A stretch of 64,000 nucleotides of DNA from an uncultured bacterium (GCA_963840685.1 CAWIZM010000001.1:752286-816285); one strand, 5' to 3'; counted from the stretch's first letter, positions 589 through 57,238 are shown. Notes: a model not told the origin generated them from the sequence alone. Made by a program: numbers and translations.

Positions 589-1839
589 ATGATAAGCACA
601 AAAAAAGTTACCTATAGCCTCATTCTTTTTTTTAGTATCTGGGGTAGTAGTACACACGCAATGAATTTGTTACGTCCATATGACACGTTGATTAGGCCAG
701 ACTTTGTGGGCGATCGGACATGGCAATTTGCTTTTTATGGTGAAGGCGGACTTGGCACCAAAGCATATTGTGCTGACGGTGAGGTGTGTGATGTATTGCG
801 CATCTGGCAACCTGAGCAAAATGCACTGAAGATGTTGCAAGGATTTCCTGAAAATTCACCCATTAGCCAATTACGCAATCAACTTGATGCGGACGATGAT
901 GGTAAGCGCGGTCACTTTTTGGTCAGCAGTGATTTTGATCTTAAATATAGTCTTGCGCTTGCTGCACGTGTCAGCTTTTTACGCGATTTCACTTTTGCTG
1001 CCTATCTCCCTTTTTATAGCATGGAGCTTAAAAATGTGTGCTGGGAAGATCAAACACAAAGTATTACTGATGAAGATATACGGGTGAAGCAATTATTGAC
1101 GGATGATTTTTTTACTATTGTTGAGCAATTGGGATGTGGACTTGATTTACGCGGTTGGAAACGCTCAGGCATCGGTGATTTAACTTTGATGCTTGAATGG
1201 TTCCGCAACTTTCCGCAAGCAAAGCCGTTACTGAAAAATGTGTTTCTTAACTGGCGTATCGGGTTGGCGCTACCAACCGGCAAGCGCGCTGATGAAAATA
1301 AACTATTTGCGATACCGTTTGGTGCCGATGGGGCCACAAGCCTTATTTTCGGTTTTGGTCTTGAACTGTTATTTGGTTCTTGCTTTAAGGCTGGCGTTGA
1401 CGTGCAGTTAACTCATTTGTTTGATACTAATCAGTTGCGTCGTATTAAAACAGATGAAAGGCAGACTGAGTTGTTGCTATTGGAAAAATCAGAAGTGCAT
1501 ATAGATTATGGATTATGGCAGCGGTTCAACCTGTTTTTTGAGTTCTATCAATTTTATCATGGCCTTTCATTCAAGGTTGGGTACAAGTTCTTTAAGCAGG
1601 GAGAAAATCATATATCTTTAGCGTGTAATGATTTTTCAACCACTATTGCAAGCACTGCAGTTGCATTGGAAGATTTTACGATGCATGAAATTATTCCTAA
1701 GTTGACGTATGATTTTGGCGTAAACCATCCAGATGCATGTACGCGGCCATATGTTTTGTTGTATGCACGATTACCGTTTAATGGAAAGCATGCGGTGTTG
1801 GCTAGAACTGCAGGCGTTATATTCGCTATTGATTTTTGA
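589..1839 (+). CDS. Putative outer-membrane beta-barrel protein (signal peptide, C-terminal Phe)
   Basis: N-terminal hydrophobic leader MISTKKVTYSLILFFSIWGSSTHA, alternating amphipathic strands, C-terminal ...FAIDF typical of OMP C-termini. RBS-like aggatt upstream. Confidence 0.4.
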   Translation: MISTKKVTYSLILFFSIWGSSTHAMNLLRPYDTLIRPDFVGDRTWQFAFYGEGGLGTKAYCADGEVCDVLRIWQPEQNALKMLQGFPENSPISQLRNQLDADDDGKRGHFLVSSDFDLKYSLALAARVSFLRDFTFAAYLPFYSMELKNVCWEDQTQSITDEDIRVKQLLTDDFFTIVEQLGCGLDLRGWKRSGIGDLTLMLEWFRNFPQAKPLLKNVFLNWRIGLALPTGKRADENKLFAIPFGADGATSLIFGFGLELLFGSCFKAGVDVQLTHLFDTNQLRRIKTDERQTELLLLEKSEVHIDYGLWQRFNLFFEFYQFYHGLSFKVGYKFFKQGENHISLACNDFSTTIASTAVALEDFTMHEIIPKLTYDFGVNHPDACTRPYVLLYARLPFNGKHAVLARTAGVIFAIDF

Positions 1840-1863
1840 GCAATTTGAATAAGGAGAAAATGT

Positions 1864-2856
1864 ATGAGAAAACAAATTTATATTCTCCCGTTGTTACTCT
1901 TGCTGAGCGTTTACTCTGCGCGATCTATGGAAAATCAAAAAGAATTAGCATTGCTTGTTGAATGTAATAGCAACAATTCGGTATGCCTGTTGCCAACTGA
2001 TATGCTAACCAAAATTATTGCTCATTATTATGATGATAAAGATCAAGTAAAATCTCTCAAGAGCACTATCGCAAACTTTATGAAATTAAGATCAACTTGC
2101 ACAGGTTGGAATAACTTATTAACGTTTGAGAAGATTGGTGATTTTTGTAAAAATTACCCTCAAGTTATCAAAAATGTTCTTTTAGGAGAACTAACCTATT
2201 CCTCTCGCTTGCCTATATTAGTACTAGTTCATGCCAGTATTGAACCGAGCATTGCTTTTCATAAAATAATTAATGCATTGCTTATCACCGTAGTCAGTAA
2301 AAATGATGTGCAATTGATTAGAATATTATTGAAACATATTGCAAAGCCAAAAGATTGCTTAGAAGAGATTAGAACGGTAGAAATAGCACAGATACTTTTT
2401 AACAATGGTGTAGATATACATACAACAGATTATTATGGACGTAACATTTTATGGAAATTGCTTGGTACATCATACCCATCAGATCTCATGAGGTTCTATG
2501 TTGCATGTGGTGTTGATGCAAGGAGACTAGATGGTTCTGGTGATACTTTGTTGCATAGCCTTGCACGTAAGGCATCAAAGATAAGATTTAGTGTCCCCAA
2601 TGAGGTTGATGATTTCTTAAAAAAAGCAGAATTATTGATAACGATGATTCCAGACATGATTAATAAATTTAACTGCCATGGATATGAATATGTTCAATAT
2701 GAAACGTCGCTTGGCATTGCTCAAAAATGTTTGAAAGATATAGCATCCAGTCATCGCTCTTTATGGGACGAAAAAAGAAGTCAAACAGAAGAAATTTTAG
2801 AGATAGAAGCTCTTGAAAAGCTTATTGTATTACTTCAGAAAAATGGTGCGTACTGA
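1864..2856 (+). CDS. Secreted ankyrin-repeat/F-box-like paralogue 1 (C-terminus truncated relative to paralogue 2 by a 2-nt indel)
   Basis: Signal peptide ending SMEN; F-box-like LPTDMLTKII motif; ANK-like GVDIHTTDYYGRNILWKLL and TLLHSLA. aaggag RBS. Paralogous to 2921..3982 etc. Confidence 0.6.
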   Translation: MRKQIYILPLLLLLSVYSARSMENQKELALLVECNSNNSVCLLPTDMLTKIIAHYYDDKDQVKSLKSTIANFMKLRSTCTGWNNLLTFEKIGDFCKNYPQVIKNVLLGELTYSSRLPILVLVHASIEPSIAFHKIINALLITVVSKNDVQLIRILLKHIAKPKDCLEEIRTVEIAQILFNNGVDIHTTDYYGRNILWKLLGTSYPSDLMRFYVACGVDARRLDGSGDTLLHSLARKASKIRFSVPNEVDDFLKKAELLITMIPDMINKFNCHGYEYVQYETSLGIAQKCLKDIASSHRSLWDEKRSQTEEILEIEALEKLIVLLQKNGAY

Positions 2857-2920
2857 CTGCACAGCAACTTGAAGAACAGAAAAATAGTGCAACATAATAA
2901 TTTAGGAGTTAATACATCAG

Positions 2921-3982
2921 ATGCAAAAACTAAATTCTGTTTTTAAGATCTGTATGGTTGTTGTTTTATTGAGTTCTCTGCCTATGCAAGGTATGGAAGA
3001 AGATTGGCAACGTTTCATACAAAATGCCCAAAGATATGATAGTAATGACAGTGATAATCAATTACTTTCATTGCCGATTGAGATGTTGGGCAAAATTGTT
3101 TCTCATCATTTTGATAATCAAGATCTTTACCCTGACCTCAAACTTTTCATGAAGTTAAGTACAGTATGCAAGCATTTTAATAGATTGTTGACGGTTGAGA
3201 CAATTGCTAACTGCTGTAAAAATTATGAACAACATAGAAGAGATTGGGTTTTAAACGATGTATTTAGTGATGAGCGTTTTAAGTATGTGGCAAAACGTTT
3301 ACCACTTTTAATTTTAGTGTGTGCTGGTGCTGATGATTATAAAGGCGAAATGTTTAGCACATGTCTGCAAAAAAATGACCTTGAACTAGTAGAAATGGTA
3401 TTCAAATATTATCCAAGTCAAAATAAAAGAAAAGCGTTAGGACCAAGTTTTTATCGTGTCAAAACAGTAGAAATGGCACAACTGTTTGTTGATAATGATT
3501 GTTTTGATATATATGGTGGTGGTTTTCATCCGGATGGTAAGCTTAATTTGTTATGGAAAATGGTTGATTCAGCATATTCGCTAGAACTGATGGAATTTTG
3601 TGTTAAGCATACTGATTATATAAAAAAATTAGCTCCTTGTGGGGTTGGTTATACGGCTAGCAATTTTTGTTTGTTGCATGCTATTGCACTGGAGTACCAA
3701 TCAGGTTGGATTACAAATCAGAATGATATTGATACTTTTTTGAAAAAAGCAAAATTTCTTCTGAGTATGATTCCAGATATGATAAATGCGACCGGAGCGA
3801 AGAATGAAACACCTCTTGATGTAGCCTATGCTAGCTTAGAAGATTTAAAAGAGACGGTAAGAAAGGGCTATGAAAGTAAAGAAAAAGTTTTAGCATTTGA
3901 ACAACTTATCGCATTATTTCGGGAACATGGTGCATTGACTGCACAGCAACTTGAAGAACAGAAAAATAGTGCAACACAATAA
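2921..3982 (+). CDS. Secreted ankyrin-repeat/F-box-like paralogue 2
   Basis: Signal peptide ending QGMEE; LPIEMLGKIV F-box-like motif; C-terminal HGALTAQQLEEQKNSATQ shared with family. Confidence 0.6.
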   Translation: MQKLNSVFKICMVVVLLSSLPMQGMEEDWQRFIQNAQRYDSNDSDNQLLSLPIEMLGKIVSHHFDNQDLYPDLKLFMKLSTVCKHFNRLLTVETIANCCKNYEQHRRDWVLNDVFSDERFKYVAKRLPLLILVCAGADDYKGEMFSTCLQKNDLELVEMVFKYYPSQNKRKALGPSFYRVKTVEMAQLFVDNDCFDIYGGGFHPDGKLNLLWKMVDSAYSLELMEFCVKHTDYIKKLAPCGVGYTASNFCLLHAIALEYQSGWITNQNDIDTFLKKAKFLLSMIPDMINATGAKNETPLDVAYASLEDLKETVRKGYESKEKVLAFEQLIALFREHGALTAQQLEEQKNSATQ

Positions 3983-4002
3983 TTTAGGAGTTAATACATC
4001 CA

Positions 4003-5169
4003 ATGCAAAAATTGACTTGTATCTTTAATTTTAATCTAATTTGTTTTTCAACCATTTTGTTCAGTGCGTTACCAGTGCAGGGCATGGAAGGAGCTTGGGA
4101 TCAATGTTTGGCAAGACTCGCATTGGTTAATGCTCAACTATGTAAATCATTAATTAATGCCCAAAGGTATGATAGTGATGATATGCCGGAATTAGTTCGA
4201 ATCAGTGATGATGAATTAATAGAAATAAGTAAAAGAAGGAAATTGGGGTTACTTCAATTAGCTAATGCCAAAGCCAAAGTAGAAGAGCTGAAGAATGATA
4301 TAAAAAGTTTCATGAAATTAAGTACCACATGTAAAAGCTGGAACAACTTTTTAACGTTTGAAAGAATTGGTAGCTTCTGTGAACATTATCCGCTAGAGAC
4401 CAAGAATGAAGTTTTACGATATTTGATAGAAAGCTGGGGCAGTAGTTTTGATGGTGAGTGTCGACCTACATTAATATTAATTTGTGCCGGTGCTGATATC
4501 GATACTAATCATCGCGGTAGAAGTGCTCTTAAAAGAGCTGTCTATAAAGATGATGTGCAATTTGCTAAAACATTATTTAGGTATAATGCAAACCCAAATA
4601 TACAAACATATTATACGTTCGTATCTGGATATTTTCCAGTTTTTTTCTGTGCTAACACGGTAGAGATGGTGCAGACATTTATTGAAAATGGCGTAGATAT
4701 ACAAGCAACAGATTTTGCTGGGCTTAATGTTTTATGGCATATTTTGTACAATGAAGGCTCAGCAGATCTGATGAAAGTTTATCTTGAACATGGGGTTGAT
4801 GCTACAAAATTACACCTTGGTGATAATGCTTGCTTATTACATGCCCTGGCGCATAGCTATTATATACCCTATATTGACAATTTCTTACAAAATGCAAATC
4901 TCCTACTCACGGCTATTCCTGGTATGATTAACACATTGGATGAGGATAATCTTACGCCTCTTGACGTTGCTCAAGAATCTTTGAAAGGGCTACAAGAAGA
5001 CGTAGAAGCGGAAAGCGCATTGAAAGACCTACAAGAAGATGGAGAAGAAGATGGAGTGGTGGAAAGCGCATTGGCATTTGAGAAATTTATCGCATTGCTC
5101 CGAGAACGTGGTGGTCTTACTGCGCAAGAACTTGGGATAATAAACATAGTGGAAAAACTTGATCAATAA
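4003..5169 (+). CDS. Secreted ankyrin-repeat paralogue 3
   Basis: Leader ending QGMEG; ANK repeat HRGRSALKRAVYKDDVQFAKTLFRYNANPN; C-terminal RERGGLTAQELG family motif. Confidence 0.6.
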   Translation: MQKLTCIFNFNLICFSTILFSALPVQGMEGAWDQCLARLALVNAQLCKSLINAQRYDSDDMPELVRISDDELIEISKRRKLGLLQLANAKAKVEELKNDIKSFMKLSTTCKSWNNFLTFERIGSFCEHYPLETKNEVLRYLIESWGSSFDGECRPTLILICAGADIDTNHRGRSALKRAVYKDDVQFAKTLFRYNANPNIQTYYTFVSGYFPVFFCANTVEMVQTFIENGVDIQATDFAGLNVLWHILYNEGSADLMKVYLEHGVDATKLHLGDNACLLHALAHSYYIPYIDNFLQNANLLLTAIPGMINTLDEDNLTPLDVAQESLKGLQEDVEAESALKDLQEDGEEDGVVESALAFEKFIALLRERGGLTAQELGIINIVEKLDQ

Positions 5170-5190
5170 GCACAACAAGGGATATTCTTC

Positions 5191-6277
5191 ATGCAGAAAT
5201 TAACGTTTAATTTTAATCTAATCTGTTTTTCAATTTTTTTGCTCAGTGTGATATCTGTGTGGGGCATGGAGGAAGAGATCAAGCATGATGTTACGCCTAT
5301 AGCAGCAAGCACGCGCAGAGGTTATAGTGTTCAGGATTTACTAAAACAATCACGTTATTGTATAGAACCTGAAGGTCTTGATCTAGCAAAAGAACTTACC
5401 ACGACTATTAAAAATTTTATGCGATTACGTGCCACCAGTGAAAGCTGCAATAGATTGTTTACCCCTGAAAAAATCGGTAGTCTTTGCAAAAGTTATCCCC
5501 AGGAGGTTAAGAATAACGTTTTACGCGATTTAGTAGAAAAAAATAGATACAGTATTCAGTATAAAACAAAGCGGCTGCCGATATTGATGTTAGTCTATGC
5601 TGGTGCTCGTGTCAGCGTTAAAATTAATAATAACTCTTTATTTGAAGATGCAATTGCGCACAATGATGTACCATTAATGAAAACATTGTTTAAATATCAC
5701 ACCTATCAAGATCTGACTGCCGGTATAGGGTTAAGGGAAAAGCCAAGTTTTTTTCTTGCCAAAACGGTAGAGATGGCCGAAAATATTCATTAAAAATAAG
5801 GTTAATGTGCATACAGTTTCTTCTGTATCCAAGACTAATATTTTGTGGGAACTCGTTAATGATCAACATTCATCAGAACTTATGGAATTTTATTGTGCAC
5901 ATAAGGTTGATGTGAAAAAGCTACGGCCGAGTGACCATTCTTGCTTGTTGCATAGAATTGCATTGTTTAATTTTTCTTGTTCTCCTTCGTCTATAAAAGG
6001 GCCACGTCCTTCTGATGATTTTGTATGGTCACATGCAGACTTGAGTGATAATTTCCTTAGAAAAGTAACGTTATTGTTGGATGTTATTCCCGGCATGATC
6101 AATGAATTAAATTGTAATAATGAGACACCTTTGGATATTGCTCAGAAGTCTTTAAAAAATGCACAAATGTATGATATTAAGGCAGTTATTGTATTAATCG
6201 ATCAACTTATTTTACTTTTCAGAAAACAGGGTGCTTTGACTGCACGGGAGCTTAAAGAGCAGGCATTGTTGAAATAG
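5191..6277 (+). pseudogene. Ankyrin-repeat paralogue 4, split into two ORFs (5191..5793 and 5807..6277) by a stop plus frame change
   Basis: N-part has the family leader and FMRL..CNRLFTPEKIGSLCKSYP motif. C-part has LLHRIA, TPLDIA and C-terminal QGALTARELKEQ motif. The two parts are in frames 1 and 2. Confidence 0.5.
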
Positions 6278-6308
6278 ATATATTGGTACTAACAAAGGGA
6301 GATTATGT

Positions 6309-7421
6309 ATGCACAAAGTAATTTTTAGTTTTAATATCATCTATATTTCAATTATTTTTTTCAGTGCATTACCAATGCACGGCATGGAGAAAGAGAACTT
6401 GTGTGAACCGTTGTCTGTAGAAGAATCTGATTACGTTGATCATTTTCTTGCATTACCTGGTGAAATACTGCCCGGCATGCAATCACTTGAAGATAGCGTT
6501 AAATTTTTTATGAAATTGAGCACCATACACAAAAAATGGCATGCATTATTGACGTATGAAGAAATTGGTCACCTTTGTAAATACTATTCACAAGATGATA
6601 AAAACCGGGACTTAGTTTGTACATCAAATTTTCTAATTACACACGGCTATACCTCTAAACGTTTGACGCTATTAACTTTAATATGTGCTGGCGCGAATAC
6701 TATAGGACGTATGTTGCTTGAGAGAGCAGTTATTCAAAATGATGTACAATGCGCAGAAATGATATTCAAGTATTATGAAAATCCCAAAGCCTCAATAAAA
6801 GTATTGAGGGATGGTCCAATACATTCCGATAAAAAATTTAATATATTTCCTATAATTTGCAGTATAGAGATTGCATATATACCATTATTATTTGCGGTCA
6901 AAAGCGTAGATATGGCAAAGATATTTATCGCTCATGGCGCAAACATGCATGAAACCATGTACGATGAGACCTCTACAATAGTACAAAATACAGATTATCA
7001 GAATACCAATGTTTTGTGGCACATAATGGACAATAGTTACCCATCAAGCCTCATGGAATTTTATCTTGCACGTCAGGTTGATACAACAAAACTGTGTGTC
7101 TCTTATAAAGGGAACTTGCTGCATAAGTTTGCTGCAACACCGTATTCAGGTAATATAAGCAGTCTTGATAACTTTATACAAAAAGCAAAACTATTGCTTA
7201 CTACCCTTCCTGCTCAAATTAATGCGTTGAATCAACGTGATCAAACGCCGCTCAATATCGTTAAAAAATCTTTGAGAGCTTTAAAGAAAAGTAAAAACGT
7301 TGCAGCAAAGTTAGCTTTTAAGGTGCTTATTGAATTATTTCAGGAGCATGGTGGTTTTGTGGCAGAAGATCTTAATCGGCTTGCGAATTCTAAATGGATG
7401 AGTCAGCAAAGTTCAATGTAA
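6309..7421 (+). CDS. Secreted ankyrin-repeat/F-box-like paralogue 5
   Basis: Leader ending HGMEKE; LPGEILPGM; FMKLSTIHKKWHALLTYEEIGHLCKYY family motif; ANK-like repeats; C-terminal QEHGGFVAEDL. Confidence 0.6.
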   Translation: MHKVIFSFNIIYISIIFFSALPMHGMEKENLCEPLSVEESDYVDHFLALPGEILPGMQSLEDSVKFFMKLSTIHKKWHALLTYEEIGHLCKYYSQDDKNRDLVCTSNFLITHGYTSKRLTLLTLICAGANTIGRMLLERAVIQNDVQCAEMIFKYYENPKASIKVLRDGPIHSDKKFNIFPIICSIEIAYIPLLFAVKSVDMAKIFIAHGANMHETMYDETSTIVQNTDYQNTNVLWHIMDNSYPSSLMEFYLARQVDTTKLCVSYKGNLLHKFAATPYSGNISSLDNFIQKAKLLLTTLPAQINALNQRDQTPLNIVKKSLRALKKSKNVAAKLAFKVLIELFQEHGGFVAEDLNRLANSKWMSQQSSM

Positions 7422-7423
7422 AA

Positions 7424-7972: not shown

Positions 7973-9859
7973 TTAATCTTTCTTATTTGTAGAGTTATCA
8001 TCTTTTTTCATTGCTGATTCAAGCGCCATTTGGAATGCACTTTTCATCTTTGACGCGTTTGCAGCAGGTTGTTGCTGTTGTTGCGGTTGCTCAACGTGAA
8101 CAGCTGCTTCTTTGCGTGCAGCAGGTTGTTGTTGCGCAGGTTGTTTTTTTGGTTTTTCAACATGTTGTTTTTGCGCAACTGGAGAGGTGATTTCACCTTC
8201 AAGCTTCATATCCAAGCCAATTTTACGTTCATCTTTATTGATGTTGATGACGCGGAATTGAGCTATTTGTCCAACCTTAAAGATATCATCAGCTTTCTTA
8301 CCTTCTAGGTTTGCATTGTGAAGCAATCCTTCTATGCCGGTAGGAAGTCTGACAAAAGCGCCAAAGTTAGTGATCTTTGATACTTCACCTTGAACAACTT
8401 TACCTACTTGGTATTCTTGCTCAACTTGTGCCCATGGATCTTGTCCAAGTTGTTTTACACCGAGTGATATTTTTTTGTTGTCTTTGTCGATTGCCAAAAT
8501 AACTGCTTCTACTTCTTGGCCAATTTTATAGCGATCGCTTGGGTGCTCAATATGTTCAGTCCATGAAAGGTCAGAAATATGAACTAAGCCATCAATACCA
8601 GGTAGCAATTGAACAAAAACACCAAAATCGGTGATGTTGCTAATGGTACCTTTGATCTTTTGACCAATTTTGAATTGTTGATCTACGGTCTTCCAAGGAT
8701 TTTTTCCAAGCTGTTTGATACTCAATGACATACGACGATTGTCTTTGTCCAAAGAAACAACCAGTACTTCAATTTCTTCACCAACTTTGAACTTGTCAGA
8801 TAAGTTTGTGATGCGATCAGTCCATGATACTTCAGATATGTGTACAAGGCCTTCAACGTTTGGTGCAACTTCAATGAATAGACCGTAATCGGTAATGCTT
8901 GAGATTTTACCTTTAATTTTGCTGCCGACTTGTATTGCAGGGTCAAGATTTTCCCATGGATTACCCGTGAGTTGTTTAAGCCCAAGAGAGATTTTTTCAT
9001 TATTTTTATCAAAGGACAATACTTTAACGGTGATGTTGTCACCAATTCTGACCACTTCACTTGGATGTGCAATGCGACCCCATGTCATATCAGTAATATG
9101 GAGCAAGCCATCAACGCCACCAATGTCAATAAATACACCGTAGTTGGTGATATTTTTAACGATACCTTGGATAACATCGCCTTCTTTGAGCTTGCCTAAG
9201 ATATCTTTGCGTGCTTCTACACGTTGATCAGCAAGGTATTTGCGACGTGAAATAATAACGTTTCCACGTTTTTGGTTAATTTTAAGAATGTTTGCGGTAA
9301 TTGTTTGACCAACATATTTATCAAAATCAAGTACTCGTTGTAGATCAATTTGTGATCCAGGCAAGAATGCAGGAATACCAATATCAACGTTCAAGCCACC
9401 CTTAACTTTATGGGTAACCAGACCTTCAACCGGTTTGCCTTCTTCAAAGAATTTAATAATTTGAGCCCATGCTTTAGCAGCTTTTGCTTTTTCGTATGAA
9501 AGAACAATGTTACCTTCAGCATTTTCTAGGGTATCAAGGATTACTTCAATATCATCATTTGGTTTCAAGTTTTTTAATTCTTGAATACTGAATTCGTATT
9601 TAGGGATCATGCCACGTGATTTGTAGCCTATATCAACATAGACTCCATCATTATCAACGGTGACAACATGTCCTTTAACAATTTTGCCAGATTGGAAAAT
9701 ATCAAAAATACCTTGGTACAGATTAGATATTTCGCTTTTTAGCTCATCACTTATTTGGAACTCGCTAAAATCAACGTGTTGTTTTGACCTGTTCGTGCAA
9801 AATTGATTTGGATTTATAAACTCTTTTGACATAAAAAAAGACTCCGAATTTCCAGTCAT
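7973..9859 (-). CDS. rpsA: 30S ribosomal protein S1 with a Q/P-rich C-terminal extension
   Basis: Six S1 domains (repeated GxV.G.V..I...G.F..l motifs); 628 aa. Confidence 0.9.
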   Translation of the reverse strand: MTGNSESFFMSKEFINPNQFCTNRSKQHVDFSEFQISDELKSEISNLYQGIFDIFQSGKIVKGHVVTVDNDGVYVDIGYKSRGMIPKYEFSIQELKNLKPNDDIEVILDTLENAEGNIVLSYEKAKAAKAWAQIIKFFEEGKPVEGLVTHKVKGGLNVDIGIPAFLPGSQIDLQRVLDFDKYVGQTITANILKINQKRGNVIISRRKYLADQRVEARKDILGKLKEGDVIQGIVKNITNYGVFIDIGGVDGLLHITDMTWGRIAHPSEVVRIGDNITVKVLSFDKNNEKISLGLKQLTGNPWENLDPAIQVGSKIKGKISSITDYGLFIEVAPNVEGLVHISEVSWTDRITNLSDKFKVGEEIEVLVVSLDKDNRRMSLSIKQLGKNPWKTVDQQFKIGQKIKGTISNITDFGVFVQLLPGIDGLVHISDLSWTEHIEHPSDRYKIGQEVEAVILAIDKDNKKISLGVKQLGQDPWAQVEQEYQVGKVVQGEVSKITNFGAFVRLPTGIEGLLHNANLEGKKADDIFKVGQIAQFRVININKDERKIGLDMKLEGEITSPVAQKQHVEKPKKQPAQQQPAARKEAAVHVEQPQQQQQPAANASKMKSAFQMALESAMKKDDNSTNKKD

Positions 9860-10242: not shown

Positions 10243-11826
10243 ATGAAACGTTTTTATCAATTATTGTTTGTTGTTGCTGCTTTGGTAAGTGGCACTGTGT
10301 ATGGCATGGAAGTAAATATTAGGGATGCTGATTATGCTGGTCTTATGACGTATCTGAGGGCGAACGGTTATAATTTTAGTGAAGAACAACCATATGAGTA
10401 TGAAGCAAATGCATCTAAGGTGTTACCTGACATAGAAACATTTCTCTTTGCAAATGCAGAACAACAGAATGACTCGTATGTTCAATTATGCATATCTTAT
10501 TTAAATCATTGTTTTTCATCAACTGAATGCAAACCAGAAACTATTGAAGAAATGCTCAGAGCGCGTTTTACTGGTAATTCAGCAAAAGCATTGTTCTATG
10601 CTCCTTATAGACAATTCATGGTTGGGCAGTTGCAATTGGATAAATTGTATCCAGCTATAGAGGCTATTTGTAAGTCAAAAGATATTGATGCAATTTTAGG
10701 TTGGCTATCAATATTTGATGGTATAGATAATTCATGTGAAGTAATGCTTGTTGATCAAGGACTTAGCAAGGTAATAGCGCCTAAAAAGGGAAATGTGATT
10801 GCAATGAGTCCAGAAGAGCATTCATTGTTGCAAAAGGCTAATCATTTACAAGGACGCGGTAAAGCGTTTATTGATACACTGCGCGAGCAAGATCAAAAAG
10901 ACAAAAATGAGCGTCAACAGTTACGTGCAAATGCAGAAAAAAGAAAAGACAACATAGCTGGGCAAATATTTAATGCTCTTAAGCCAAATCAAGAGGCTCG
11001 CTTAGATCAGTTACTGCAAGATGAGTTAATTGGTGATGATGCGCCATTAGGTGAATATCGTGATTTTATTAATGCTGAAATTCAAAAAAGAATAAACGCC
11101 CCTAGGGTAAAAGCAGAAGATCGTGTAGTGCTATTAAACACATGGAACGCTAAGTTTGCTGCATTACCTGTTCAGGTAAAGCCAGAACCGGTGATAATTC
11201 CAGTGATAATTATTGATAATAAGCCACAACAACCGTTAAATCATAATCAAAATAATAATATTCCTAACAATCCAAGCATAGTTTTTCCTTGTGTAGGAGC
11301 AACCTTTTTATTTAATAAAGATGGGAGTCCGTTATCATCTAAAAACCTTGATGATTATCCAGATGGATATGATAAAGATGGCAACAAGATGGTATGGGAT
11401 GATTCTATTAAGAAATATATATTCGAAGGGCAACAACGAAGCGTTACTGAAAAACCAGAAGAACCAAAAGTAGAGTTACCTCAACAACCGCCTCAACAAC
11501 CAAACCAACCAAATGTAGATGGTCAGCCACAGCAACCAGTGCCAAATGCACCAAAAGGCATAGCTGCACTATTCGCGGCAATTACCGCACCTAGATTAGT
11601 AGTTGCGGCAGTTGTGGTGGGTGTATGTTATTGGGGTTACACTAAATATCAAGATTATAAAGCAGTTGAATCCTCCTCCGCCAAGGCTTCGGCGGACAAG
11701 GAATCCTCCTTCGCTAAAGCTACGGCGGACAGGGAAGCTGCAGCTGAGCAAAACAAGCAAAGTAAACAACGCATGCATAAGCAGCAACCAGTGCGCAAAC
11801 CGGTACATAAAAAGCGCACACGCTAA
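10243..11826 (+). CDS. Secreted Pro/Gln-rich protein with a C-terminal TM anchor and basic tail. It contains an in-frame GC-rich repeat insertion
   Basis: Leader ending VYGMEV; PQQP repeats; TM LVVAAVVVGVCYWGY; GC-rich segment at 11655..11725 encoding SSSAKASADKESSFAKATADREAAAEQ. Confidence 0.5.
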   Translation: MKRFYQLLFVVAALVSGTVYGMEVNIRDADYAGLMTYLRANGYNFSEEQPYEYEANASKVLPDIETFLFANAEQQNDSYVQLCISYLNHCFSSTECKPETIEEMLRARFTGNSAKALFYAPYRQFMVGQLQLDKLYPAIEAICKSKDIDAILGWLSIFDGIDNSCEVMLVDQGLSKVIAPKKGNVIAMSPEEHSLLQKANHLQGRGKAFIDTLREQDQKDKNERQQLRANAEKRKDNIAGQIFNALKPNQEARLDQLLQDELIGDDAPLGEYRDFINAEIQKRINAPRVKAEDRVVLLNTWNAKFAALPVQVKPEPVIIPVIIIDNKPQQPLNHNQNNNIPNNPSIVFPCVGATFLFNKDGSPLSSKNLDDYPDGYDKDGNKMVWDDSIKKYIFEGQQRSVTEKPEEPKVELPQQPPQQPNQPNVDGQPQQPVPNAPKGIAALFAAITAPRLVVAAVVVGVCYWGYTKYQDYKAVESSSAKASADKESSFAKATADREAAAEQNKQSKQRMHKQQPVRKPVHKKRTR

Positions 11827-12041: not shown

Positions 12042-12461
12042 ATGAGCAATAATACATATGTTTTTTTTCTGAGTATTGCAATGGTGTGTATGTCTTTCCA
12101 TATGGAGGGAATGCAAACTATAGCGGATAGGGTGAAAGATGTAGTTAGTTTTTTGGATCGCCATAGCGGTAAGACTTTGGTAGCTGCATTGGGCATATTG
12201 GTTGCATCTACCTATTATGAAGAGGATGACTCTGAAGAAGATGAGCTTTTTAATCCAATAACTTACATTGGTCAATACTTTCAAAAAAAAGAAATCAACA
12301 CTGATGATATGGCCTATGATTTAAAAAAAATGTCTGGAAAAGAGTTGCATTTGCCAACAGATATGAATATTGAGCACGGTGTTGATGATGAGGATGATAG
12401 TGAAAATGGGAGTATGGATCCGATTGCTTGGATGGTATTATGGGATATTGCGTCCCGGTAA
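12042..12461 (+). CDS. Small secreted acidic protein (hypothetical)
   Basis: ATG at 12042 with an aaagggg RBS; leader ...FHMEGMQT; D/E-rich. The ORF track starts at 12006. Confidence 0.4.
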   Translation: MSNNTYVFFLSIAMVCMSFHMEGMQTIADRVKDVVSFLDRHSGKTLVAALGILVASTYYEEDDSEEDELFNPITYIGQYFQKKEINTDDMAYDLKKMSGKELHLPTDMNIEHGVDDEDDSENGSMDPIAWMVLWDIASR

Positions 12462-12497: not shown

Positions 12498-13466
12498 TTG
12501 AAGCTAAAAGTGAGAGTTTTGTGTTTGCTGTTTCTTTGTGTGTATGCTGAATTTTTGGCAATGGAGCATGAGCAAAAAAAGATATCTGATCTGAATGATA
12601 TTGTGGTTGATAAGGTTGATAAAGCTAATAACCCACCAAGTATAATACAATTGGTGTATACCGCATTTTTAGAAAGGACGCCGAGTAAAAAAGGGGTTCA
12701 AATGAGTAGCCCACAACAAGCAGTGCATCAGATTGAAAGTGAACTCGATAAACACATTGCAGCATTAAAAGATGGTGATCCAGAGATGTATGCAGCAATT
12801 ATGAATTTTAAGCTGCAGGCAGAGTTAAATGGTAAAACGCAACAAGAAATTAAAGAGTTTATAGAAACAAATCTGGATAAATTGTCTTCTATCAATATGT
12901 ATCAACATTTGTATAGTGCGCAGGCTGCAAAAATAGAATCAGATAAGAAAAAAGATTATCAGTTGCATGATGTGCTGGATAACAAAGAATTGGTTAATGA
13001 ATCAACGTTATACCATACACTTTTGTATCGCTCTGCTGCCATAGCATGTGGCAAAGAGGAAGTTGAAAAGGAAGTAGAAAAAGCAAAGGGATGCGTTGAT
13101 GATTGGCTTAAAAAAATAAAAGAGGATCATCCTATAGCGTATGCTATTTTGGCGCAAGCATATGAAGAGGCTAAAAACAACAATCTCAATCAACAAGATG
13201 CCGGTACACATTTGCTTAATGCGGTCAATCAACTTACCAATGTAGATTCATTATTACTGCCTATGAAAGACATTCAAAGTGCACACCAAAAAACAACTAT
13301 TTGGAAGCAGGCTGGTGGAATTATAGCAGCAGTTGTTGGTATTTTCAGCACAATAAGTGGATCGACTGGGGGGATTTTGGGTGGACTTTTTGCAACTAAA
13401 AATGCGACGGTTATCGCGTGCACATTGGGGGAATGTATTGCTTTGATGAATGTTACGATTGGATAA
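12498..13466 (+). CDS. Secreted hypothetical protein with a C-terminal glycine-zipper membrane segment (TTG start)
   Basis: aaggag RBS 5 nt upstream of TTG; leader ending LAMEHEQ; C-terminal GGIIAAVVGIFSTISGSTGGILGGLFA. Confidence 0.45.
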   Translation: MKLKVRVLCLLFLCVYAEFLAMEHEQKKISDLNDIVVDKVDKANNPPSIIQLVYTAFLERTPSKKGVQMSSPQQAVHQIESELDKHIAALKDGDPEMYAAIMNFKLQAELNGKTQQEIKEFIETNLDKLSSINMYQHLYSAQAAKIESDKKKDYQLHDVLDNKELVNESTLYHTLLYRSAAIACGKEEVEKEVEKAKGCVDDWLKKIKEDHPIAYAILAQAYEEAKNNNLNQQDAGTHLLNAVNQLTNVDSLLLPMKDIQSAHQKTTIWKQAGGIIAAVVGIFSTISGSTGGILGGLFATKNATVIACTLGECIALMNVTIG

Positions 13467-13541: not shown

Positions 13542-13964
13542 TTAGAACGTGGTATTAATTTCGTTACGCAATTCGACTTTGCTACGAGCACCAGTTTTTT
13601 GACTTATTTTTTGTCCGTCTTTAAAGAATACAAGCGTTGGTAGGCCACGTACGCCGAAGTTTTTAGTTAAATCCTTGAATTTTTCTGTGTCGACTTTGAC
13701 AAACGTGATACTGGTCATTTCTTTAGCGAGGTCATCAATAATTGGGCTCATGCGTTGGCATGGACCACACCAGCTTGCGAAAAAGTCAACGACTACATTG
13801 CCGTTAGCGATTGCATCATTAAATTCTTGTTCTGAACCTATGTGTATGACGGTGCCAGTTTCAGTTCGCTTAACCATTTTTGCTTTGTCATTTTTTTGTA
13901 CACATCCGGTAAATGAAACGGTGCACAAGAATATTAAGGCAGATGTTTTATAGTTCATTTTCAC
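13542..13964 (-). CDS. Periplasmic thioredoxin-like lipoprotein
   Basis: WCGPCQ active site; lipobox-like SFTGC leader. Confidence 0.8.
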   Translation of the reverse strand: MKMNYKTSALIFLCTVSFTGCVQKNDKAKMVKRTETGTVIHIGSEQEFNDAIANGNVVVDFFASWCGPCQRMSPIIDDLAKEMTSITFVKVDTEKFKDLTKNFGVRGLPTLVFFKDGQKISQKTGARSKVELRNEINTTF

Positions 13965-42547: not shown

Positions 42548-43272
42548 TTTGTCGTATAAAAAAACAGACTATTCTTTTTGGTATCATGTTATGTGCTTTA
42601 TCTGCACAATTGTTTTGTGCTGAAAAAATTACCTTCTCAGCAGAGCAAAATGGTATCAGCCTTGCCGTAGTGGATTGTACAATAAATCCTCCTTTCTACT
42701 TCAAACAATTTAATACTGGTACACCTCTTGTTCCTGGATTGGGAGTACAAGAATTTACGGAAAAAGGCATGCATCCAATTCGCATTATCATCCATAACAC
42801 GAGTGCAAAACCAGTTGTTATCGCACAAAATTCATTCCGTATGAAGCTTGCTGATTTGACAAGACTTGATCAATTTTTTTCAGCTGGAGATGGGATAGCA
42901 TTATCGTTTTTTATTGGTGTGTATGGTGGTATGTTTGGTGGTTTCTTAGCGCTTCGAGAAGGTGAGGACCCGGGGAGATGGAGATATTTGCCTTTTTCGT
43001 TGTCAAATTATCCCGTAACTTGTAGTTGGTGTACTGCGATGATAGGGTTGTCAATATATGGGTCGATGTCTTTGTATCAGGAAAAACTAAAAAAAATACA
43101 AAAACTTGAAAAATATTTCTTGAATAAACCAATCATCATAGAACCAGGTAAAATGGTACAAAAACTTGTCTTATTGGATGGTGCATCATTCCATTCGTTT
43201 TTCCAATTTCGTGTATTCAACTATGACCAAACCGAATATGCTGCAACCTTTGATATTGAATTGATGGCGTAA
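42544..43272 (+). CDS. Membrane protein family member M2 (ATGA start/stop overlap with M1)
   Basis: Same architecture; 4-bp overlap suggests translational coupling. Confidence 0.5.
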   Translation: MICRIKKQTILFGIMLCALSAQLFCAEKITFSAEQNGISLAVVDCTINPPFYFKQFNTGTPLVPGLGVQEFTEKGMHPIRIIIHNTSAKPVVIAQNSFRMKLADLTRLDQFFSAGDGIALSFFIGVYGGMFGGFLALREGEDPGRWRYLPFSLSNYPVTCSWCTAMIGLSIYGSMSLYQEKLKKIQKLEKYFLNKPIIIEPGKMVQKLVLLDGASFHSFFQFRVFNYDQTEYAATFDIELMA

Positions 43273-45570: not shown

Positions 45571-48064
45571 TTACGCAACAGGTGCTGTTTTCTGATTGCG
45601 ATAAGTTGTAAGCAGAGGATTTGCTTCACCCATTTGAACAACATCTTTCAGTTGTTGCGCACGACCTTCTGATTTTTTATCAGTATTGTCTACAACAATT
45701 TTTTTCCTGCGTTCTCGTTTTTGCTGTTTTCTGCCTGGTGCTTTATGCCGTGATTCTTCTCTGTTTAATGTTTCATCATCCTTGACAAATTCATCCATAG
45801 CTTCTGCTGCTTCAATATTATTTTTAAAGAAGAATCGTGTTACTGGATCTTTGAGCGAATCAAACAATGAGCCTTCCACAGCATATTGTTTAGCAAGACC
45901 TATGTAATCTTTCGCATGTTGATGTATGCCGCCACGTAAGTTAGGCATAATAATGGTTGGTGAAATAAATACGGTTAAATTGTCTTTGCTGTTATCAGAG
46001 CTTCTATTTTTAAAGAACCATCCAAGAATTGGTATTTTTGAAAGTAGTGGAGTTTCATTTTCCGCATCATCATTTTCGGTACTTATCAGACCACCAAGTG
46101 CTAAAATACTTTTATTTCTTATATTTGCGTTGGTATGTACTTCGCGTGTATTTATAGTGTTTATAAATCCAGGCGTATTTGTGGCAAATGTATTGATTTC
46201 TATATCTACATTGAGGTTAATAATATTATCTGGGCTAATGCGTGGCGTAATTTTTACTTTAAGTGATGCTTCAATTGGGTCTTGTTTAATATTTGCGGCC
46301 TGCGTACCTAATGATGCTTCGCCAAGTACGAGCCGTGTTGTACCAACTTTAATAGATGCCTGTTTATTATCAATAGAAACCACGTGAGGATGAGAGATAA
46401 TTTTTGTAGCGTTAAAAGAACGCAACACTTGAAGTAGACTCCATGTCTCGCCATCTTTATCGTTAAATGAAATTATTGCGCTACCTTGTGGTGCCAAGCC
46501 GGCGATATTAGAGACTGTGGGAGGGGATTAGGATTGTTCAACGTATTGTGCAAGCAGATTACCCGCTATGGTTCCTGGGAATATAGATGTATCAACAATT
46601 GGTGGTACTAATTGCGCTGACTGAATATTGATTTGACTTGGCAAGCATGAGTTGAGATTACGTGTTTGTTGGCCAAGTTGGCGAAGATCATCAATACTGA
46701 CGTCAGCAATGAGTACTTCGATAAATACCTGAGGGAATGGTTTGTCCAACTGTTCAAGGAGATGCTTGATACGCTTCCAATCATCATTACGTGCAGCAAT
46801 AATCAGTCTATTGCCACCTGAATACTGATATTTAGCGCTACCTTTTTCACCCGGTGCTGCCGGAGCGCTGGGTTGATCACCTTCGGGAATGTCTGACTTA
46901 ATAATCACCGTGTCAAAAAAGCGTTCTGGTCCTCCACCAGCTCCTCTTTCTGACTTGCTTTGTCCGGTTACCCGCAGCATCCTTTGATCCTATAACGCTT
47001 TCCAAAACAGGAACTATTTTTTGAGCATCCAGGTAGAGCAATGTATAGACATGCAGTACTGATTTACCTGAATCAGGTTCAAGATCGATATAGGTCTCAA
47101 TAAAATCTTTAATTCTATCGACTGCTTGTGAACGTCCAACGACAATTAATGAATTAGTACGCCCTTCATCAATAATGCGGGTATTTGGTGCAAAATAGGT
47201 TTCACCCGGTTTGCGCGCATCGTTACGCATATGTGGTCCAGTAGGCAGTGCAGCTTTAAGAAGACCTTCAGTGAATAAATTTTTAATATCCTTTGCGGTA
47301 GTATGTTTTAATTTAACGATTTCCATTTTTTCATGGAAACCACCTTTGTCCAGTTGTTTGACAATAGCCATAGCACCCTTGATGGTGTCGGCTTTACCAA
47401 CTAAAATTAATGCATTGGCATTAGCATCTGTAAAAAAGGCAGTAGCGCCAGGAGCATTTGACGGAGTAGTAGATGGTCCAGAAAAAATATGATTGAGTAC
47501 TGCGGTGAGTTCATTATCCTGTGAACCAGCACCCGGAGCGGTAGGAACTTTCATATTGCTCAAATAATGTACATACCGAATACGTACGTCACCATCGGGT
47601 AAATCATCAAATGCGGTACCTATAAAAGTTGGCATTGGTTCAGAAATAATGCCTGGCGATGTTTCAGGGATGCGTATGATGGCAAACATGTCACCTTGTG
47701 GTTTAATGGCGTACCCTGCAACGTCAAGAATGGTATACAAGAGATTCCATGCCTCATCAACAGTCATTTTTTCTTCTACATAAAACGTAAGTTTGGCTGT
47801 CTAATTCGGACAATAGGTGGTTTTTGGGGAAGCACAATATTGATATCTCTTTTCTGCTGCGATCAGATTAATGACATCAACCAAATCCTTGTTTTGAAAT
47901 TGGAACAGGAATGTTTTTTTGTTAGCTAATCGTCCATGGTCGATTGTATTTTTTGAAGCGTTTATTGTGGTATCGCTTTGTTCTTGGATTATAGGTTCTT
48001 CAGCTGCATGCAATAGGTTGCTGGCGATAAGGAGATTACATACTATTATTATTACTCTATTCAT
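45571..48064 (-). pseudogene. Second secretin (GspD/PilQ-like) gene fragmented into four ORFs (47801..48064 signal+N0 start, 46913..47767 N domains, 46528..46980, 45571..46497 secretin C-domain)
   Basis: Collinear secretin homology across the four ORFs in different frames; paralogous to the intact upstream secretin. Confidence 0.65.
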
Positions 48065-55333: not shown

Positions 55334-55559
55334 GGCGACTAGAGGCTATTTTCTTCGAAATTGTAAGCGTATAATCATAATGCATTGTCAGCACGAACGG
55401 CTTATAATAATGCGTTATGTTTGCTTGCTCCACGCTTGTCAAAATTAGTTGTTTGTGCAACTATACTATCTACTTATCAAACGCACATAAGAACCAAAAT
55501 AAACACATATAAGAATCAAAAAAACGTACATAAGAACCAACATTCGCTAAGGAATTTTT

Positions 55560-56075
55560 ATGATATTATCCGGCAAAGAAATTAAAAATAGATTAAATAA
55601 AGATATTTTTATTGAACCTTTTAATGACGCACAACTCAATCCAAACAGTTACAACTTGCGTCTGCACCATGATTTGCTTGTGTATGATGAGCCATTGCTT
55701 GATTTAAAAAAAGAAAATCGTGTACAGGCAATTACCATTCCAGATGAAGGGCTTGTTTTGGAAACGGGTAAATTATATTTGGGGCGTACGGTGGAATATA
55801 CCAAAACGGAAGCGTTGGTTCCTATGATTGAAGGACGCTCATCAATTGGTAGGCTTGGCTTATTCATCCACATTACTGCTGGCTTTGGAGACGTTGGGTT
55901 CCGTGGTTTCTGGACACTGGAAATGTTTTGTGTACAACCAATTCGCATCTATTCTGGTGTTGAAATTTGCCAGATTTTTTATCACACCATTGAGGGTGAA
56001 TATGTTCATTATGCAAGCAATAAATATCAAAATAATTTAGGTGTTCAGCCAAGCCTTTTATACAAAGAATTCTAG
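55560..56075 (+). CDS. dcd: dCTP deaminase
   Basis: ILSGKEI...NPNSYNLRL, EGRSSIGRLG motifs. Confidence 0.88.
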   Translation: MILSGKEIKNRLNKDIFIEPFNDAQLNPNSYNLRLHHDLLVYDEPLLDLKKENRVQAITIPDEGLVLETGKLYLGRTVEYTKTEALVPMIEGRSSIGRLGLFIHITAGFGDVGFRGFWTLEMFCVQPIRIYSGVEICQIFYHTIEGEYVHYASNKYQNNLGVQPSLLYKEF

Positions 56076-56101
56076 AGTATTATTACGGCGTTAATTGTCC
56101 C

Positions 56102-57238
56102 TTACTTAAGCTGCTTTTGAATTTCATCAAACACAGGGTTAATGTATTTTGTTCTGAGTTCTTGCAATTTAGCCGCATCAATTTGTAACCATGGATACTG
56201 TTCATTTGAGTTAAACATTTTTTTCAAATCTTGGAGTACTTGTTTTCGATCAGCGATCGCATAGGCATCAAGATAGCCTTCTATGAAACTTTTAAAAGCG
56301 AGATCAAACCATTTTTTCAAATCAATACCTTTGATGACATCTTTTCTTGCAGCAGACTCGCTTGTAGAAAAGGGTGCTAAAAATGGTTTTAATATATCAT
56401 CAGAAGGAATTGCTAAGTTATTGAGGAATGCTCTCATGGTTTCATTATCAATGAAGGTGAAGTGACCACCAATTTCATCATAAAAAACATTGAAGCAATG
56501 GAAATCTCCATGAGGAATGGTTTTGCCGATTTTTGCACCAGGAACTGGTTTCATAAACCGTTTATGGAAGTTGGCTAATTCAGTGCCCAGTATTTTGTAT
56601 GCACGCTTAACTCTTTCAGCATTTTGTGGTGTTTGACTATCGCGAAAAGCAGTAACGATCTCACATAACACTTTGCCTTTTGCTGTTGGCATTGCCGCTA
56701 TGTAGTGAAGACCATAACCAGCGGGATAAGAAAAGTAGGCGAATGGCAATGCAATACTTGGGAATCCTTTTGGAGGAACTGCTGGCGCAATGAGTTCTTT
56801 CATGCCAGGATATTTTTCTATTTCCTTAAGACTGAGTGTTTCATCCAATCCATTTCTTGCTTCTTTGATGATGTACATAGATGCTGGCCCAGGGCGACAG
56901 GTTGCGGTCACTTCAAAAAGTTGTATGGTGTTAAAACTACCTTCTAAATCTTTTATGGTTCTTTTCTTTGCTTTTAAACATGTTTCTTTACTGAAATCTT
57001 CATTGAGAAGTTTTTTTTCGCTGTAGGCTTTGGCTAAAAATTTGGGTAATGATTTTTCGGTAAAAGTACCATCTGGTTCAAGTAATGATTTATCAAAGGC
57101 TATCTCCGGCACTACAGCTGCTCCATAGGGATCACCTTTGATCGGTTTTTGTTGCGCAACTAGATTGGGCAATAAGCCAAACATGGCTACACAGAGTAGG
57201 CCTTGCGCTTTTTGTGTGAATGCATGCGTATTCTTCAC
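56102..57238 (-). CDS. Secreted protein with a protein-kinase-like (APH/CotS-type) catalytic signature
   Basis: Signal peptide; HGDFHCFNVFYDEIGGHFTFIDNE resembles the HGDxxxxNxx...IDxE catalytic/Mg-binding loop of kinase-like fold enzymes. Confidence 0.45.
   Translation of the reverse strand: MKNTHAFTQKAQGLLCVAMFGLLPNLVAQQKPIKGDPYGAAVVPEIAFDKSLLEPDGTFTEKSLPKFLAKAYSEKKLLNEDFSKETCLKAKKRTIKDLEGSFNTIQLFEVTATCRPGPASMYIIKEARNGLDETLSLKEIEKYPGMKELIAPAVPPKGFPSIALPFAYFSYPAGYGLHYIAAMPTAKGKVLCEIVTAFRDSQTPQNAERVKRAYKILGTELANFHKRFMKPVPGAKIGKTIPHGDFHCFNVFYDEIGGHFTFIDNETMRAFLNNLAIPSDDILKPFLAPFSTSESAARKDVIKGIDLKKWFDLAFKSFIEGYLDAYAIADRKQVLQDLKKMFNSNEQYPWLQIDAAKLQELRTKYINPVFDEIQKQLK

Follow-up and report, generated by a model that had tools for sequence, protein, structure and literature searches.

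A Met-Glu signature at the predicted mature N-termini of exported proteins in Dependentiae

In a 64,000-nt stretch of DNA from an uncultured bacterium (GCA_963840685.1, CAWIZM010000001.1:752286-816285; hereafter the window, with positions counted from its first letter), the hydrophobic leader of predicted exported proteins typically closes with a small residue and Met, after which comes Glu or, less often, Gln, Asn or Asp. The same signature was found in related genomes of the Dependentiae (TM6/Babeliales), and apparently it represents a conserved, hitherto undescribed feature of the leaders in this phylum. Its distribution, its position relative to the predicted cleavage site and its conservation are presented below, and the explanations that could account for it are weighed against each other.

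Enrichment of the Met-Glu motif at leader ends

Translation of all open reading frames (ORFs) of the window gave about 63 likely genes, about half of which start with a signal-peptide-like leader. Leaders were recognized with a home-made heuristic in place of SignalP: the start codon had to be followed by a 10-residue segment without charged residues whose mean Kyte-Doolittle hydropathy reached 1.7 or more. In the 18-position stretch past the hydrophobic core, occurrences of [AGSCTN]-M-[EDNQ], hereafter the strict pattern, were counted, and the expectation, taken from the rate of the identical tripeptide in the remainder of the proteins, was compared with the count by a binomial test. The pattern was present in 19 of 33 leader-like ORFs versus 0.95 expected (p = 3e-21) and in 0 of 30 leaderless ones. 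Between a small and an acidic or amide residue after the core, Met was counted 20 times and every other residue at most 5 times, the background frequency of Met being 2.1%.

A first-pass annotation of this DNA had reported such leader ends on more than 20 predicted exported proteins. All 19 strings quoted there were located at leader ends, and three additional ORFs (15260-15787, minus strand, MS↓MEPD; 16451-16726, plus strand, MS↓MQIL; 12042-12461, plus strand, EG↓MQTI, with the arrow marking the predicted cut) bring the number to 22, spread over positions 589-42547. The accompanying statement that almost every secreted protein has this ending was overstated, as about ten leader-bearing ORFs of the window lack the motif, including the one at 56102-57238, with which the region delimited by that annotation ends.

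Occurrence in related genomes

The ribosomal protein S1 gene at 7973-9859 has its nearest relatives, at 60-67% identity, in metagenome-assembled genomes (MAGs) labelled Candidatus Dependentiae, TM6 or Babeliales, with one further, more distant relative at 39% identity; judged by this gene, the window derives from a Dependentiae (TM6/Babeliales) genome. Some public metagenome contigs encode proteins identical to those of the window. Through the S1 relatives a comparison set of 17 Dependentiae loci of about 20 kb each (L002-L018) was gathered, so that about 400 kb of Dependentiae sequence was covered; the loci are syntenic and hence not fully independent. In these loci the strict pattern occurred in 39 of 169 leader-like ORFs, against an expectation of 3.1 (p = 8e-31), but in 1 of 140 ORFs without a leader; it was seen in 15 of the 17 loci. 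The identical pipeline applied to 150 kb of Escherichia coli K-12, the sole outgroup used as control, returned 1 of 52. The earlier suggestion of a lineage-specific motif thus agrees with our data, the motif being common to Dependentiae/Babeliales MAGs and nearly missing from the single outgroup tested. Searches of the open-access and bioRxiv literature on Dependentiae, TM6, Babela and Chromulinavorax returned signal-peptide counts and no mention of the motif.

Predicted cleavage site and type of leader

When the leaders are aligned on the Met, which falls at residue 19-28, Gly, Ala or Ser occupies position -1, a bulky residue precedes it at -2, and -3 holds Val, Leu, Ile, Met, Thr, Ala or Ser. 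Since the strict pattern itself imposed a small residue at -1, the count was redone without that constraint, using the first M[EDNQ] (64 cases): the preceding residue was A, G, S or C in 51 of 64 versus a background of 18-21%, and position -3 was L, S, V, I, M, T, C or A in 58 of 64. A blind cut-site scorer, crude and hand-set, which judges sites solely by the -3/-1 rule and by how polar the subsequent residues are, +1 counting for nothing apart from a penalty on Pro, returned Met as the top +1 residue (10/23 in the window, 29/115 in the relatives) and Glu as the top +2 residue; on E. coli neither came out on top. Of the two placements offered by the first-pass annotation, Met at +1 of the mature protein and Met at -1, the former is upheld: Met adjoins a canonical -3/-1 signal peptidase I site, and at -1 it would break the rule. 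The scissile bond is therefore predicted to lie directly before Met, and the mature proteins are predicted to start with Met-Glu.

In composition the leaders correspond to Sec signal peptidase I substrates, averaging 21.3 residues in length, with 1.5 Lys or Arg in the n-region and an uncharged stretch of 16 residues. Motif carriers do not form a distinct type, as their length and hydrophobicity show no clear difference from those of non-motif leaders; the Lys/Arg content of the n-region differs marginally (1.53 versus 1.75, p = 0.049), and the net charge at +3 to +12 does not differ significantly. Other classes of signal were considered and rejected. Cys after the predicted cut, expected of a lipoprotein (signal peptidase II) signal, was found in 0 of 22 window leaders, and the Arg-Arg pair of a twin-arginine (Tat) signal likewise in 0 of 22; the thioredoxin at 13542-13964 possesses a lipobox (FTGC) and no Met. 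A type IV pilin/prepilin signal does not fit either, as the hydrophobic stretch precedes the Gly/Ala/Ser-Met bond and Glu stands at +2, not at +5. Pfam scans of all motif-bearing proteins and NCBIfam yielded no model matching the leaders, including SVM_signal.

Start codon usage

Shine-Dalgarno cores were found 4-20 nt before the leader start in 15 of 19 window genes and 24 of 39 related genes, and before the conserved Met in 4 of 19 and 0 of 39, respectively, the background for internal Met being 6-7%. These counts run counter to the possibility, raised in the first-pass annotation, that translation truly starts at the Met, leaving the hydrophobic codons ahead of it untranslated. Some automatic gene calls do begin at that ATG; nevertheless, a Shine-Dalgarno site, AAGAGGA, precedes the leader ATG of the phosphoribosyltransferase (PRTase), AGGAG precedes the GTG start in locus L019, the leaders are open in frame over 18-27 residues and keep their n/h/c layout in orthologues despite sequence divergence, and the -3/-1 pattern is canonical, so that this explanation is hardly credible.

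Very improbable, too, is dual initiation, in which the conserved in-frame ATG would act as a second start and yield exported and cytoplasmic forms of the same protein. It could draw on the conservation of the ATG, on the Leu, Val and Ile replacements, which lie one base from ATG and could be near-cognate starts (amino acids, not codons, were compared), on the habit of gene callers of starting at the internal ATG, and on two carriers being enzymes that the bacterium itself might need. The rarity of Shine-Dalgarno cores before the internal Met argues against it, and it leaves the conserved Glu and the small -1 residue unexplained; besides, ankyrin and WD40 effectors have no obvious need of a cytoplasmic form, and a leaderless copy of the phosphoribosyl pyrophosphate (PRPP) synthetase is already present.

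Database gene calls often begin at the conserved internal ATG and drop the signal peptide (P0003, P0016, P0020, P0082, P0084, P0097 and P0102), which was verified on contigs for two loci, L019 and L020. Accordingly, the Dependentiae PRTases P0016 and P0020 were rejected as leaderless examples, their contigs showing mis-called starts and intact GTG-start leaders upstream (locus L019, 2938-3465, with AGGAG upstream of the GTG; locus L020, 1934-2452, also with a GTG start). As the internal ATG makes gene callers clip genes, signal peptides are overlooked and secretome predictions for the phylum may be underestimated.

Conservation of the Met-Glu dipeptide

In ortholog groups built by mature-part similarity of the leader-bearing proteins, Met-Glu was mostly either near-universal within a group or entirely absent from it; the PRTase family is intermediate, the motif being confined to its closer members. 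For five cross-genome groups, pairwise identity was 0.83 at +1 and 0.70 at +2, versus 0.04-0.22 at +3 to +9 and 0.13-0.57 at -8 to -1, figures that are biased upwards by being anchored on the motif itself. A leader is present in every Dependentiae PRTase orthologue found. Among close orthologues the site reads [S/T/A/G]↓M-[E/D], in some orthologues it reads L-E, V-E or I-H, and distant members show ordinary sites; the distance from Met to the conserved domain differs in four sequences, the Met tracking the cleavage site.

The residue after the leader-end Met was described in the first-pass annotation as acidic or amide; this is true, with the qualification that it is chiefly Glu. In the window and related loci pooled, Glu accounts for 46% and Asp, Asn and Gln for about 7.5% each (Glu 37, Asp 6), the four together for 69% (55/80), whereas residue 2 of cytoplasmic proteins with Shine-Dalgarno-supported starts is Glu in 10% and any of the four in 19% (p = 8e-12). 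A motif at the nucleotide level was rejected: the -1 codons are varied and the GAA/GAG ratio at +2 equals the background, which places the constraint at the protein level. The -1 Gly codon was GGC in 7 of 9 window genes versus a 28% background (p = 0.003), a preference weak in the relatives (5/10, p = 0.07) and confounded by paralogy, and there is possibly a slight preference for C immediately before the ATG. Given the conservation counted above, we favour the reading that purifying selection maintains the Met-Glu pair, across Dependentiae/Babeliales, in one stable set of exported proteins.

Carriers and non-carriers of the motif

In the window and its relatives the carriers comprise ankyrin-repeat proteins, WD40 propellers, CPT/zeta-like P-loop kinases, the PRTase, a class B acid phosphatase (Met-Asn) and many proteins without a family match; the PRPP synthetase paralogue is a carrier in the Met-Leu variant. 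The motif-bearing class consists mainly of rapidly evolving, eukaryote-like or orphan proteins, such as one would expect to target the host. Non-carriers are Skp/OmpH, the secretin GspD, GspC, the thioredoxin lipoprotein, Band 7 and sulfatase proteins and, in the relatives, M16 peptidases, C11 peptidases and lipases. The Skp orthologues have Ala↓Asp/Glu, with Met in 0 of 17.

An outer-membrane beta-barrel (589-1839, plus strand; leader MISTKKVTYSLILFFSIWGSSTHA↓MNLL, Met codon 661-663) is encoded directly upstream of a tandem Met-Glu array at 1864-7421. Its AlphaFold2 model is an outer-membrane beta-barrel with a predicted local distance difference test score (pLDDT) of 90, the best fold matches being the FapF polypeptide transporter, a COG4313 channel and FadL. 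Within Babeliales it is highly conserved: of 269 matching clusters, the 120 with the best scores show at least 48% identity. The protein closes with Phe in 119 of 120 clusters, and the predicted mature N-terminus, MNLLRPYDTLIRP, is nearly invariant, with [A/G/S]↓M-N in 100 of 103 parsed clusters. As this conserved barrel has Met at +1, Met alone is no effector marker. One may speculate that the barrel is a candidate for an outer-membrane conduit.

Three ORFs on the plus strand, 41870-42547, 42544-43272 and 57551-58225, have N-terminal regions that are alike by eye only, with no Pfam match. Their leaders end in QA↓MSLQ, FC↓AEKI and YG↓HTQV, Met being present in just 41870-42547; if the trio is one family, it is an exception to the all-or-none pattern of the ortholog groups.

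Leader cassettes and gene history

Two cassettes on the minus strand, each composed of a promoter region, a Shine-Dalgarno site and a leader, confirm the duplication noticed earlier at 16 kb and 19 kb. Cassette A (16177-16343), which ends one base past the ATG, and its duplicate, cassette B (18948-19113), are 74-92% identical over the repeat families D1-D3 (upstream block, Shine-Dalgarno site and leader). The homology halts one base after the ATG of Gly-Met, at GGCATGC, and the sequences downstream are unrelated, A being followed by a 114-amino acid (aa) orphan ORF (ORFan) and B by the PRPP synthetase paralogue. Between the cassettes lies an IS630-family transposase (16733-17621, minus strand) made up of an HTH_Tnp_IS630 ORF and a DDE_3 ORF that a frameshift probably joins; its terminal inverted repeats are at 16722-16749 and 17663-17690. 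The three leaders of the MNYN family are about 90% identical in DNA, synonymous sites included, the similarity fading about 25 nt past the ATG and the downstream parts being unalignable; in the MQKL family, a tandem array, similarity drops after ATG-GAx. These patterns together with the duplicated cassette indicate that leader modules have been duplicated or recombined ahead of differing coding sequences. On the other hand, at least 13 leaders of the window have no evident mutual similarity on inspection and yet share the identical type of ending.

The PRPP synthetase and PRTase genes allow the origin of the Met to be traced. A leaderless PRPP synthetase copy at 19811-20731, 69% identical to the leader-bearing paralogue, starts with MD-FEFI, and alignment to it places the ancestral start about 45 residues downstream of the leader-end Met; no homology was found when the linker was aligned to the upstream DNA of the leaderless paralogue. 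Leaderless distant homologues of the PRTase start about 6 residues after the Met. The proposal that leaders were captured ahead of pre-existing start codons is not supported as a general cause: the old PRPP synthetase start lies far downstream, the PRTase Met tracks the cut, the +2 residue is biased and Met-Glu is conserved beyond its neighbours. In the cases tested the Met is, as far as these alignments tell, not an old start codon. The signal peptides on the PRTase and the PRPP synthetase paralogue predict export of two nucleotide-salvage enzymes.

Interpretation of the signature

The interpretation that we tentatively prefer, giving it somewhat less than an even chance, is that Met-Glu is a selected tag on the mature N-terminus that sets the fate of one cargo class, and not a fossil of gene history. 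An ordinary Sec leader of about 21 residues, with a basic n-region and a hydrophobic core, would be cut by signal peptidase I before Met, and the exposed Met-Glu N-terminus would be read by some factor after Sec translocation, presumably one acting in sorting or stability. The tag would determine the later fate of the protein, i.e., its onward export out of the periplasm and/or its survival in the host; the onward step would use the type II secretion system, the sole route available. For type II substrates in general, a linear signal is not known. Apart from the tag, the leader behaves, together with its promoter and ribosome-binding site, as a module that is duplicated and recombined ahead of unrelated coding sequences. 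The first-pass idea of a sorting signal is a plausible hypothesis. Its strongest form appears rather unlikely to us, namely that Met-Glu is a second-step export signal which parts hundreds of host-directed effectors from periplasmic residents and hands them to the type II system or possibly to the conserved FapF-like barrel encoded beside the array; were it true, the signature would be a bacterial counterpart of the mature N-terminus signal of the Plasmodium export element (PEXEL) and the first simple linear signal for an outer-membrane step.

The main rival, doubtful in our view, is a processing or protection rule without sorting meaning, according to which Dependentiae signal peptidase I, or periplasmic or host peptidases, would favour Met at P1' and Glu at P2', providing efficient cleavage and an untrimmed N-terminus; fast-evolving proteins would have arrived at this optimum, and housekeeping ones would keep ancestral sites. 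Such a rule agrees with the occurrence of +1 Met on the outer-membrane barrel and the acid phosphatase, with the Leu, Ile and Val replacing Met in orthologues, which would fit a hydrophobic S1' pocket, with the close likeness of motif and non-motif leaders, and with the Bacteroidetes precedent, where Gln at +1 stabilises proteins and has no sorting role (PMC5837995, PMC10653852). An optimum should, however, spread everywhere, yet the Skp, M16, C11 and lipase groups are consistently without the motif, and neither a modifying enzyme nor an unusual signal peptidase turned up in this analysis. It is this absence of the motif from whole ortholog groups across genomes, whereas a generic optimum should reach all substrates, that favours the fate tag.

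A historical by-product is less probable than the processing rule, and we consider it unlikely: a mobile promoter-leader cassette would have been fused at or near the ATG of cytoplasmic-type or horizontally acquired genes, the Met being the old start, and would have spread by duplication and recombination. The match of cassettes A and B up to one base past the ATG and the MNYN leaders followed by unalignable sequence speak for it, as do the mostly cytoplasmic-type folds of the carriers (ankyrin, WD40, kinases, PRTase, PRPP synthetase) and the PRTase Met, from which the start of leaderless homologues is no more than about 6 residues away. This history is at odds with the distance of about 45 residues to the old PRPP synthetase start, where the linker is not a former upstream region, with the shift of Met together with the cleavage site in PRTase orthologues, with a +2 position far richer in Glu than cytoplasmic residue 2, with the conservation of Met and Glu while the leader and mature flanks turn over between genomes, with the Met on an ancestrally exported barrel, and with the dissimilar window leaders that share one ending. 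Lower still do we rank mimicry of host N-termini. NatB is a eukaryotic N-terminal acetyltransferase acting on Met-Glu, Met-Asp, Met-Asn and Met-Gln, before which residues Met is retained, and it acts chiefly during translation. Effectors belonging to this substrate class would be acetylated in the host cytosol, resemble host N-termini and evade N-degron pathways. By sequence, E, D, N or Q comes after 55 of the 80 leader-end Mets, which places these 55 in this class, and the carriers include eukaryote-like repeat proteins, which are expected in the host cytosol (PMC4378268). However, Glu exceeds Asp about sixfold though NatB takes both, the enzyme acts mainly co-translationally, +1 Leu or Ile orthologues would have N-termini that are destabilising in eukaryotes, and the outer-membrane barrel remains in the bacterium.

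Several points weigh against the fate tag itself. The leader detector admits false positives, e.g., Rossmann-fold N-termini; the cut before Met is a prediction; and the conservation figures carry the upward bias stated above. Met is not confined to effector-like cargo, being found in the barrel homologues and, as Met-Asn at +1/+2, in the class B acid phosphatase, and conversely the strict motif is missing from some WD40 and ankyrin proteins. PRTase orthologues tolerate Leu, Ile or Val in place of Met. The split between carriers and non-carriers is equally predicted by historical origin, and the authors who described the Gln preference in Bacteroidetes found it to be no generic sorting signal (PMC5837995).

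Comparison with known systems

The closest known kind is the Q-rule of Bacteroidetes, of which the present motif is an analogue and not a member. Under that rule Gln occupies +1 in 64-79% of signal peptidase I substrates and is cyclised to pyroglutamate (PMC5837995, PMC10653852). Both are lineage preferences for one residue right after a canonical Sec/signal peptidase I cut, shared by many but not all exported proteins. Dependentiae differ in using Met, which tops the +1 distribution, with Glu at +2, instead of Gln, in the lack of a modifying enzyme among our findings, and in coverage, which is about 25-60% of leader-like ORFs versus 64-79% and is skewed to effector-like and orphan proteins.

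The Plasmodium PEXEL, RxLxE/Q/D, leaves a mature N-terminus x-E/Q/D that separates exported from resident proteins, and precise signal-peptidase cleavage suffices to make it (PMC10653839). An intracellular parasite with many unrelated effectors and an acidic or amide +2 residue are common to both cases; PEXEL, however, is eukaryotic and depends on plasmepsin V in the endoplasmic reticulum and the PTEX translocon, whereas in Dependentiae the three residues before the cut follow an aliphatic/any/small pattern, without Arg at -3 and without RxL. The resemblance is functional and speculative, not one of homology. The lipoprotein export signal of Bacteroidetes, an acidic motif after the +1 Cys (PMC5080379), is likewise a short acid-containing mature N-terminus, which in Bacteroidetes decides passage beyond the periplasmic face of the outer membrane; it differs in requiring signal peptidase II and +1 Cys, while the Dependentiae motif proteins have no lipobox. 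Among Sec-only, host-restricted bacteria, the phytoplasma SVM signal and the mycoplasma Vlp-type lipoproteins combine a conserved 5' region and signal peptide with divergent mature parts, whereas the Dependentiae leaders form many unrelated-looking families that share only the final [small]-Met-Glu.

Dependentiae are widespread obligate parasites of protists, with signal peptides on up to 44% of their proteins (PMC6561590, PMC4378268), including most ankyrin proteins (PMC4378268, PMC6561590), and type II is the only secretion system reported for them (PMC4378268). The motif bears on the question of how they sort host-directed effectors from envelope proteins. A two-residue signature would offer a mutable handle on effector sorting and a classifier for candidate effectors in MAGs, and it would be the second example, after the Q-rule, of a phylum-specific rule in the supposedly universal Sec/signal peptidase I pathway.

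Features of the window

The tandem array downstream of the barrel, entirely on the plus strand, begins with an ankyrin-repeat protein (1864-2856, VYSARS↓MENQ, Met codon 1927-1929). It is followed by a paralogue at 2921-3982 (leader starting MQKL and ending LPMQG↓MEED, Met codon 2993-2995), an ankyrin-repeat paralogue at 4003-5169 (LPVQG↓MEGA, Met codon 4084-4086) and further paralogues at 5191-5793 (ISVWG↓MEEE, Met codon 5266-5268) and 6309-7421 (LPMHG↓MEKE, Met codon 6384-6386). The leader-bearing ORF at 5191-5793 (200 aa) and the leaderless one at 5807-6277 (156 aa, same strand) have a summed length that fits the tandem paralogues (353-388 aa), and 5191-6277 may be one interrupted gene.

Three plus-strand ORFans follow. 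The first, at 10243-11826 (SGTVYG↓MEVN, Met codon 10306-10308), has a C-terminal transmembrane segment and a long basic tail, from which a single-pass membrane protein is predicted, possibly bound for a host or vacuolar membrane. The second, at 12042-12461 (leader MSNNTYVFFLSIAMVCMSFHMEG↓MQTI), has an ambiguous cut, with Met codons at 12102-12104 or 12111-12113, and the third lies at 12498-13466 (VYAEFLA↓MEHE, Met codon 12561-12563). Around the cassettes, the minus strand encodes the PRTase (15260-15787, leader MNNKSTILFSLIVSSTLMS↓MEPD, Met codon 15728-15730), the 114-aa ORFan behind copy A (15899-16243, leader MKNFFILQALVLLALNGTTLG↓MQQR, Met codon 16178-16180) and the PRPP synthetase paralogue behind copy B (17890-19017, leader MKNFFISHLALILLTLNGNLVG↓MLDV, Met codon 18949-18951, linker of about 45 aa), and the plus strand encodes a small ORF (16451-16726, MSGNIMS↓MQIL, Met codon 16517-16519).

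The MNYN-family ORFans are located on the minus strand at 22130-22465 (AGHVYG↓METE, Met codon 22397-22399), 22538-23287 (AGCVYG↓MDAE, Met codon 23219-23221) and 24224-24955 (TGHVYS↓MNDD, Met codon 24887-24889). On the same strand are ORFans at 23310-23906 (leader MKKYIPLLVSLSIICTIATA↓MDNM, Met codon 23844-23846), 26275-26772 (CHTSFT↓MNES, Met codon 26698-26700) and 26973-28037 (leader MYKNILFLLPLLSLATLSHA↓MEDQ, Met codon 27975-27977). Amid these effector genes a Bro-N domain protein of the phage or large DNA virus type is encoded at 25288-26136 (plus strand).

The remaining motif carriers are on the plus strand: an ankyrin-repeat protein at 30774-31319 (ITGLNA↓MQPE, Met codon 30831-30833), a variant ORF at 41870-42547 with Ser at +2 (SSMLLQA↓MSLQ, Met codon 41945-41947) and the ORF at 38612-38824 (QAQQLES↓MEIE, Met codon 38699-38701), quoted as an example in the first-pass annotation. 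In the last case the string is present as given, but the ORF has only 70 aa and looks like the 5' end of a degraded ankyrin gene: over 38612-39444 it is followed by out-of-frame fragments that are ankyrin-like by eye, and the whole is probably a decaying effector gene with an intact leader.

A type II secretion cluster lies within the window. A second secretin is distributed over three minus-strand ORFs that overlap or adjoin each other at 45571-47767 (Secretin_N at 46913-47767, an ORF at 46528-46980 and Secretin at 45571-46497), which could be a frameshifted gene or a pseudogene; two gspD copies have been reported in TM6 genomes (PMC4776705). The sulfatase at 32626-34184 (minus strand) likewise appears to be divided between an N-terminal ORF of 125 aa that carries a signal peptide (33807-34184) and one of 373 aa (32626-33747), and is likely a frameshift or a pseudogene.

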